Shown one piece after another: positions 19,029-20,574 of a DNA stretch of 64,000 nt. The translations under genes were made by a program, and so were the position numbers. The notes beneath the pieces were generated by a model. That model did no database searches, was not told the origin of the DNA, and worked only from the letters and a program-made list of their open reading frames with translations. The stretch lies in NCBI RefSeq assembly GCF_055900595.2, contig NZ_CM148325.1. One strand, written 5' to 3'. Positions within the stretch are counted from its first letter, which is position 1. Each line of letters starts with the position of its first letter.

Positions 19029-20574
19029 ATGTTAAGGACGACACGATGGGTCGCTGCAATTATTATTTTGTATTCTTTTCCAGGTTATGCTGAAGAAACT
19101 TTTGATACACACTTTATGATCGGCGGCATGAGAGGAGAAAAAGTTTCTGAATATCATTTAGATAATAAACAACCGCTTCCAGGAAACTACGAACTTGATA
19201 TTTATGTAAACCACCAGTGGCGTGGAAAACAAGATATCATGGTCCCAGAGTCACCAACCAAACCATGTCTGCCTGAGGAGCTGTTCACCAAACTGGGGGT
19301 GAAGACCGATAAGATCAATACAGAAGATCATTGTATTTCACTGGATGAAGCGGTTCATGGTGGTCAATATCAGTGAACACCGACTAAATTTAACGATCCC
19401 ACAGGCGTATATCAATGAACTTGAAAGAGGTGACGTTCCTCCGGAAAGTTGGGATCGCGGCATTGATGCTTTTTATACCTCCTATAATTTATAGTCAGTA
19501 TCGCTCTTATGACAGTAATAATAACAGTAATACAGCCAGTTATGGTCGTTTTAACAGCGGATTAAATTTATTTAGTTGGCAATTACACTCTGATGCCAGC
19601 TATAGCAAGCCTGATGATATGAAAGGCACATGGCAAAGTAATACTCTTTACCTGGAACGTGGCTGGTCGCAAATATTAAGCACAGTTCAGATAGGAGAAA
19701 ATTACACATCCTCACTCATATTCGACTCTCTGCGATTTAGCGGAATACGCTTATTTCGCGATATGCAAATGCTACCTGATTCTATGCAGAACTTTACACC
19801 TTTAGTACAAAGTGTTGCGCAAAGTAATGCCTTGATAACGGTTACGCAAAATGGCTACATCATTTACCAAAAAGAGGTTCCCCCGGGACCATTTACTATC
19901 GCAGATTTGCAACTTTCGGGCAGCGGCGCTGATCTCGATGTCAGCATAAAAGAAGCAGATGGTAGTGTTCGTTCCTTTTGGTGCCCTACTCTTCCGTGCC
20001 CAACATGCTGCAACCAGGTGTTTCAAATCTCGATTTTATCGCCGGACGCAGTAAGATATATGGTGTAAATAATCAGGAGGACTTTCTTGAGGCAAATTAT
20101 TTATATGGCCTCAACAATCTTGTGACACTGTATGGCGGTTCGATTTTAACTGATAACTATAATGCAATAACGTTAGGAAATGGTTGGAATACACCGCTGG
20201 GTGCTATTTCTTTTGACGCTACCCGATCGAGTAGTAAGTTATATAATGATAAAATACACGAAGGTACAAGCTATCAGGTCGCCTATAATAAATATCTAGT
20301 GCAAACGGCTACTCGCTTTAGCGTGGCCGCCTGGCGTTATGCTTCGCAGGATTACAGGACATTCAGCGACCATCTTTACGAAAATGATAAACACAATCAT
20401 CATAGTGAATATGATGATTTTTATGATATTGGCAGAAAAAATAGCCTTTCTGCCAATATTATGCAACCTTTATCCACCGGCATAAAAATTGCTCTCAACG
20501 ATGAACAGAACTTATTTTGTACCATTACTTTTAAAAACGTTATCGATGAAAATAAAACATATATATGTCAGTAA
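19029..20574 (+). pseudogene. Fimbrial outer-membrane usher, truncated and frameshifted
   Basis: Three consecutive ORFs in three different frames (115, 217, 198 aa) carry usher-like sequence; the total of about 515 codons is well short of a typical usher of roughly 850 aa, implying internal deletion plus frameshifts. Confidence 0.7.

Follow-up and report, generated by a model that had tools for sequence, protein, structure and literature searches.

A decayed yhlC usher gene with an internal in-frame deletion in the Yeh-like (Yhl) fimbrial operon of Escherichia coli

The fimbrial gene cluster and the remains of its usher gene

The window analysed here is a stretch of 64,000 nucleotides in which a four-gene cluster of low GC content (32–42%) lies on the plus strand between an espX1-like effector gene and the nhaR and nhaA genes (Table 1). 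The genes are arranged in the order espX1-like, subunit, chaperone, usher, adhesin, nhaR and nhaA. The ushers Z0022, ECs0022 and EC042_0022 were previously assigned to the gamma4 type "Yeh-like" (Wurpel et al. 2013, Table S2; PMC3559732). The Yeh-like system was later renamed Yhl, with yhlA to yhlD denoting subunit, chaperone, usher and adhesin, and the receptor-binding domain of YhlD was solved as PDB 8V9V (Sci Adv 2026; PMC12778044). We found the same A to D order, with the domains Fimbrial, PapD_N/PapD_C and PapC_N/Usher/PapC_C followed by a 319-residue protein that has no Pfam match. Judged from its sequence and location, the cluster, flanked by espX1/rpsT and nhaR, is the known Yeh-like/Yhl gamma4 chaperone-usher cluster of E. 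coli, and its usher gene is yhlC. The locus of E. coli 042, at about 21–24 kb of the record, has the arrangement seen in the window and an usher identity of 93–98%; going by position, the old tag EC042_0022 probably corresponds to EC042_RS00125. The adhesins of L001 and L004, which represent the two haplotypes of the locus (A and B, respectively) described below, matched no chain in a copy of the PDB that apparently lacks 8V9V.

Table 1. Features of the fimbrial locus and lesions of the usher gene, in window coordinates
Feature	Position	Strand	Description
espX1-like gene	15257–16729		
Major fimbrial subunit gene (yhlA-type)	16973–17506	+	Intact, 177 aa; orthologue matches Fimbrial (PF00419); exact protein named "fimbrial protein [Escherichia coli]"
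Chaperone gene, 5' piece	17557–17567	+	First 11 nt (ATGAGAATTAT), split off by IS1; from comparison with the uninterrupted L007
IS1, 768 bp	17568–18335	+	In chaperone codon 4; 9-bp target duplication GAGAATTAT at 17559–17567 and 18336–18344; ends GGTGATGCTGCC... and ...GGAGTCATTACC; insA/insB ORFs at 17623–17898 and 17817–18320
Chaperone gene, remainder (yhlB-type)	18336–19016	+	-1 in A-run 18600–18606; ORFs 18322–18651 and 18606–19016; orthologue matches PapD_N and PapD_C
Usher remnant (yhlC)	19029–20574	+	ATG at 19029 to TAA at 20572–20574; 1546 nt, about 515 codons
Usher segment 1	19029–19366	+	Frame 0; codons 1–113 by alignment to the intact usher; signal peptide and most of PapC_N (positions 1–100 of 146)
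Usher 11-bp deletion	19366/19367	+	Usher nt 339–349; 9-bp direct repeats ATATCAGTG; stop after 115 codons
Usher segment 2	19367–19491	+	Frame 1 (+1 relative to segment 1); codons about 117–158; end of PapC_N (positions 105–144)
Usher inserted T (+1)	19492	+	After usher nt 474; makes an in-frame TAG at 19492–19494
Usher segment 3	19493–19975	+	Frame 2; codons 159–319; start of Usher domain (profile positions 2–144 of 549)
Usher -1 frameshift	19976–19979	+	Usher nt 958; T4 run in the window, T5 in intact genes
Usher segment 4a	19976–20473	+	Frame 1; codons 320–486; Usher domain to profile position about 321 of 549 (148–321 matched)
Usher 894-bp deletion	20473/20474	+	Usher nt 1457–2350, residues 487–784; from alignment to L004/L003
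Usher segment 4b	20474–20574	+	Frame of segment 4a; last 33 codons (end of PapC_C) and native TAA; reference nt 2351–2451
Tip adhesin gene (yhlD-type)	20587–21547	+	+1 in A8 run 20878–20885 (A7 in intact copies); ORFs 20587–20913 and 20864–21547
nhaR/nhaA	21585–23716	-	
Two overlapping ORFs (182 aa and 179 aa)	23968–24980	-	One 1245-bp gene in strain 2013C-4282

The neighbours of the usher gene differ in their state. The subunit gene is open, and the chaperone and adhesin genes each have a frameshift of their own. L001 and L006 have an intact adhesin gene (319 aa), and the gene is open in about half of the haplotype-A copies examined. Beyond nhaR/nhaA, the counterpart in strain 2013C-4282 of the two overlapping ORFs at the end of Table 1 is annotated as [quoted passage not shown], and the gene in the window looks frameshifted too.

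Intact comparators for the usher were obtained by a megablast search of positions 16800–21600 against 5426 complete E. coli genomes, which returned two classes of locus, one about 4.03 kb long with 97–98% identity to the window and the other about 4.92 kb long with about 92%. All four operon genes are annotated as intact in E. coli elppa4 (L004), with an usher of 2451 bp and 816 residues, and the usher of E. coli 042 (L003) is likewise intact at 816 residues. The intact usher contains PapC_N (residues 24–159), Usher (176–733) and PapC_C (743–804) by Pfam, and aligns with FimD structures over residues 24–805 (E=6e-113). Because its domains are complete and it aligns along FimD, the long form represents the complete, ancestral architecture. 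The sequence-only reading of the locus had measured the roughly 515 codons found here against an usher of about 850 residues; that figure is too high for this orthologue, whose intact form has 816.

The ORF listing and the Pfam scans resolve the remnant into four collinear segments that occupy three frames (0, 1, 2, 1), whose retained parts share 91–98% nucleotide identity with the intact ushers of E. coli 042 and elppa4. When the intact 816-residue orthologue was searched against the window by tblastn, residues 1–115, 117–158, 159–328, 320–486 and 783–816 were recovered at 85–95% identity, and residues 487–782 had no match in the window. The translations scanned with Pfam matched PapC_N (19029–19373 and 19369–19491) and Usher (19493–19975 and 19978–20571). 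PapC_N is thus present, although the 11-bp deletion splits it between two frames, and the Usher domain of 549 profile positions is incomplete, being represented only by positions 2–144 and 148–321, compared with 2–549 in the intact orthologue. PapC_C gave no Pfam match in the remnant, where only the last 32 residues survive (785–816, against 743–804 for the intact domain). A single open frame of about 800–880 codons is absent, the first stop coming after 115 codons. Although the remnant descends from an usher gene, it is a pseudogene and does not count as a working PapC/FimD family member; as predicted from its reading frames, translation would give an N-terminal fragment of 115 residues at the most, with which pilus assembly through this usher would be impossible.

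Four lesions in the usher gene

The lesions were mapped by global alignment of the remnant to the intact L004 usher, which gave five collinear blocks, and L003 was also compared. The suggestion that an internal or C-terminal deletion accompanies frameshifts in this gene is borne out by one internal deletion of 894 bp and three frameshifting indels, and the contexts of these lesions are direct repeats and homopolymers. The 11-bp deletion lies where the intact gene reads ATATCAGTG GG ATATCAGTG, and the surviving copy of the repeat is found in the window at 19367–19375 (+). This deletion puts the TGA at 19374–19376 in frame, and it is there that reading from the native ATG halts.

The 894-bp deletion accounts for the missing segment, which the alignment to the intact orthologue places at residues 487–784. 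Since 894 is 3 x 298, it is an in-frame loss of 298 codons that joins Ser486 to Thr785, with the junction sequence TTTATCCACCGGCATAAAA. It removes Usher profile positions about 322–549 (the C-terminal 40%) together with residues 743–784 of PapC_C, and corresponds through the FimD alignment to about residues 494–794 of mature FimD, a span that takes in the later strands of the barrel, the whole of CTD1 and half of CTD2. In the intact genes the sequence is ...TTTATCCA|ATAATC at the left breakpoint and ...AAATTCCCA|CTGGCA at the right, and the window reads ...TTTATCCACCGGCA. The only sequence common to both breakpoints is CCA (window 20474–20476), so the microhomology at the deletion boundaries amounts to just 3 bp; it was read from haplotype-B genes, no full-length haplotype-A copy having been found. 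We also considered an IS-mediated origin of the deletion and rejected it, as no IS sequence or IS end is present at the junction. Of the two kinds of deletion initially entertained, the internal one stands and the C-terminal one falls, because the last 33 codons, the native TAA and the 12-nt spacer are kept. The 3' end of the haplotype-A usher reads ...TGIKIALNDEQNLFCTITFKNVIDENKTYICQ, and the adhesin ATG at 20587 follows the usher stop after 12 nt, the same spacer as in intact operons. The internal in-frame deletion of 298 codons, its 3-bp microhomology, the 11-bp deletion between direct repeats and the relative order of the lesions are newly added by this analysis.

Spread of the haplotype and order of decay

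The espX1-yhl region of E. coli exists as two deeply diverged haplotypes, as seen when window positions 15257–21547 are compared with L001–L005. Identity between the haplotypes is 82% in the espX1-like gene and 90–92% in the subunit, chaperone and adhesin genes, and rises to 98–99% in the flanking nhaR/nhaA. Few of the complete genomes have the haplotype of the window (8 of 5426). A 201-nt probe spanning the 894-bp junction was fully covered in 8 of the 5426 genomes, and a probe over the deleted segment in 3618 of them. The haplotype-specific 3' flank (20474–20760) reached at least 98.6% identity only in the same 8 genomes and at most 90% elsewhere. Since this flank is confined to the 8 junction genomes, every available copy of the haplotype has the deletion, and an undeleted usher of the window haplotype, sought through the flank in the 5426 complete genomes, was not found. 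Nor does the missing part lie elsewhere in the 64-kb window, where blastn and tblastn searches with the deleted 894 bp gave only chance matches of 12–20 nt.

We compiled a lesion matrix over 13 haplotype-A copies. The 894-bp usher deletion and the -1 in the chaperone A-run (del1@chap:269) are present in 13 of 13 copies, and the 11-bp deletion in all except L001 and L010. The inserted T occurs in the window group, in L001 and L010, and also in the full-length haplotype-B gene of L002 (strain Rb-50), and the -1 at usher nt 958 is confined to the window group in this matrix. The +1 in the adhesin A-run (A8, ins1@adh:291) is shared by the window group, L005 and L011, and IS1 in chaperone codon 4 was seen, among the 13 copies, in the window only. 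This distribution puts the 894-bp deletion and the chaperone frameshift first among the lesions and IS1 last.

The IS1 of the window, the only one in its 64 kb, matches annotated IS1A/IS1B elements in E. coli records. A Shigella origin of the DNA was set aside in view of this single IS1 and of the E. coli names that the exact proteins bear in public sources. Four public genomes with an identical EspX1-like protein (L006–L009) are 99.9–100% identical to the window over about 18 kb and share with it the four usher lesions and the chaperone frameshift but not IS1, and no complete RefSeq genome has IS1 at the codon 4 site. These sister loci show that the operon was non-functional before IS1 arrived, and the earlier proposal that it is dead irrespective of the insertion is upheld by them.

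IS1 has struck this AT-rich locus repeatedly at differing sites: codon 4 of the chaperone gene in the window, just upstream of the chaperone gene in EC2, and the adhesin gene in 042. Several other E. coli strains have IS1 in espX1, and in K-12 MG1655 the entire espX1-yhl region between nhaR and rpsT has given way to an IS1A. The same A-runs are also frameshifted independently across strains and in both haplotypes, namely those at 18425–18431 and 18600–18606 in the chaperone gene and at 20878–20885 in the adhesin gene; such frameshifts are seen, for instance, at chaperone nt 92 (042, L001 and L011) and at adhesin nt 245/246 and 291. This recurrence points to slippage-prone homopolymers.

Recombination has left its own mark on the remnant. 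In a sliding comparison, usher nt about 372–820 (window 19400–19850) are 98–100% identical to haplotype-B genes, with flanks at about 90%. On this pattern the remnant is an intragenic recombination mosaic with functional alleles of haplotype-B type, and much of the usher polymorphism was probably imported by recombination from functional genes. Within the haplotype, the pN/pS of the remnant is about 0.24, where an old pseudogene should show a value near 1. By itself such a ratio might hint at lasting constraint. Both this low ratio and the sharing of the inserted T with L002 would be explained by recombination with other alleles and not by constraint. The subunit gene has a pN/pS of about 1.25 within the haplotype, with few substitutions and no clear selection signal.

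Taken together, positions 19029–20574 almost certainly represent a non-functional usher pseudogene of the Yeh-like/Yhl operon that decayed through ordered lesions. In the ancestor of the haplotype, illegitimate recombination or replication slippage at CCA would have produced the 894-bp in-frame deletion, fusing codon 486 to codon 785 with loss of the latter half of the beta-barrel and almost the whole of the C-terminal domains; the loss of one A from the chaperone run would be equally old. The 11-bp deletion may have followed through slippage between the 9-bp direct repeats, then the inserted T with its TAG stop, the -1 in the T5 run and the +1 in the adhesin A7 run. Last, in the window strain only, IS1 would have entered chaperone codon 4. 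We infer the mutational mechanisms, and likewise the exact order of the second to fifth events, which is complicated by recombination, the inserted T being found in the full-length haplotype-B gene of L002 as well.

Alternative readings, consequences and relation to known systems

Because the subunit gene is open in 13 of 13 haplotype-A copies and the adhesin gene in about half, though usher and chaperone died early, one might suppose that the orphan subunit and adhesin are retained through assembly in trans by Yeh (YehBC) or another gamma4 pair, so that adhesin function outlives the usher. We regard such retention as improbable.

A still less likely reading takes the short allele as an ancestral or functional compact usher, with the long form arising from an 894-bp insertion, or supposes that the gene is expressed by programmed frameshifting. 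The length of the indel is a multiple of three, the frame stays open through the junction as far as the native stop, and the pN/pS of the remnant is below 1, as this reading would have it. However, the 298 residues found only in the long form can be aligned one by one with those of FimD and PapC and give complete Usher and PapC_C domains, which makes the long form ancestral, and the mosaic exchange with functional alleles accounts for the low pN/pS. Moreover, every junction copy in the 13-copy matrix also has at least one usher frameshift and one in the chaperone gene. An intact orthologous usher of similarly short length was not encountered with the junction probes. When a junction-spanning ORF was searched against a collection of 5.8 billion proteins, the 77 matches listed contained only fragments, none of them across the junction, and no open usher of about 518 residues; as full-length ushers were not among these matches either, this is a weak negative.

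It is similarly hard to believe that the usher is simply truncated at its 3' end, with the roughly 100 nt before the adhesin gene being unrelated intergenic sequence. This is how PGAP treats the sister genomes, where in the RefSeq annotation the usher pseudogene stops about 100 nt short of the adhesin gene and bears the labels "frameshifted; internal stop; incomplete" and "missing C-terminus". Positions 20474–20574, however, align to the last 101 nt of intact ushers at 91% identity and encode residues 783–816 at 85% identity (tblastn, E=2e-14), in frame with the preceding segment that matches residues 320–486, and they lead into the native stop and the 12-nt spacer.

The weakest reading, that sequencing or assembly errors such as homopolymer miscalls or a collapsed region have disfigured an intact usher, can draw on two small indels that do lie in miscall-prone homopolymer runs (T5 and A7), but we give it next to no credence: the same lesions recur in independent NCBI and ENA assemblies (L006–L009 and L018–L020), the 894-bp junction is identical in the 8 complete RefSeq genomes, which come from various countries and hosts, the 11-bp deletion and the inserted T are not homopolymer events, and the exact 115-residue N-terminal fragment of the window lineage is listed in 542 blocks of public assemblies, which by itself rules out an assembly artefact.

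The usher remnant is thus an ordinary product of gene decay that the annotation of sister genomes already marks as a pseudogene, and its importance beyond correct annotation is small. The gene should be recorded as a yhlC pseudogene with an internal deletion of 298 codons rather than a C-terminal truncation. In fimbrial typing the strain should count as Yhl-negative, although a PCR or BLAST probe on the 5' half of the usher or on the subunit gene would call it positive. The shared junction offers a handy lineage marker for the operon haplotype, and the locus shows how a fimbrial operon can decay step by step in AT-rich, IS1-prone DNA.

Compared with the described Yhl operon, the window shares the locus between nhaR and espX1/rpsT and the order of subunit, chaperone, usher and adhesin, but its usher is without residues 487–784 and has three frameshifts, its chaperone gene is both frameshifted and interrupted by IS1, and its adhesin gene is frameshifted. 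The window haplotype is divergent from intact Yhl, its subunit, chaperone and adhesin genes being about 90% identical and its espX1-like neighbour 82%. The intact orthologue resembles the ushers FimD and PapC (3RFZ, 6E14, 7LHG) in having PapC_N, Usher and PapC_C, whereas the remnant keeps the N-terminal domain, about the first 58% of the barrel profile and the last 32 residues. With the other IS1-disrupted yhl loci of E. coli (K-12, 042 and EC2), the window has in common an IS1-associated loss or insertion at the same locus; in contrast, the 894-bp junction is specific to the window haplotype and the IS1 site in codon 4 to the window strain.
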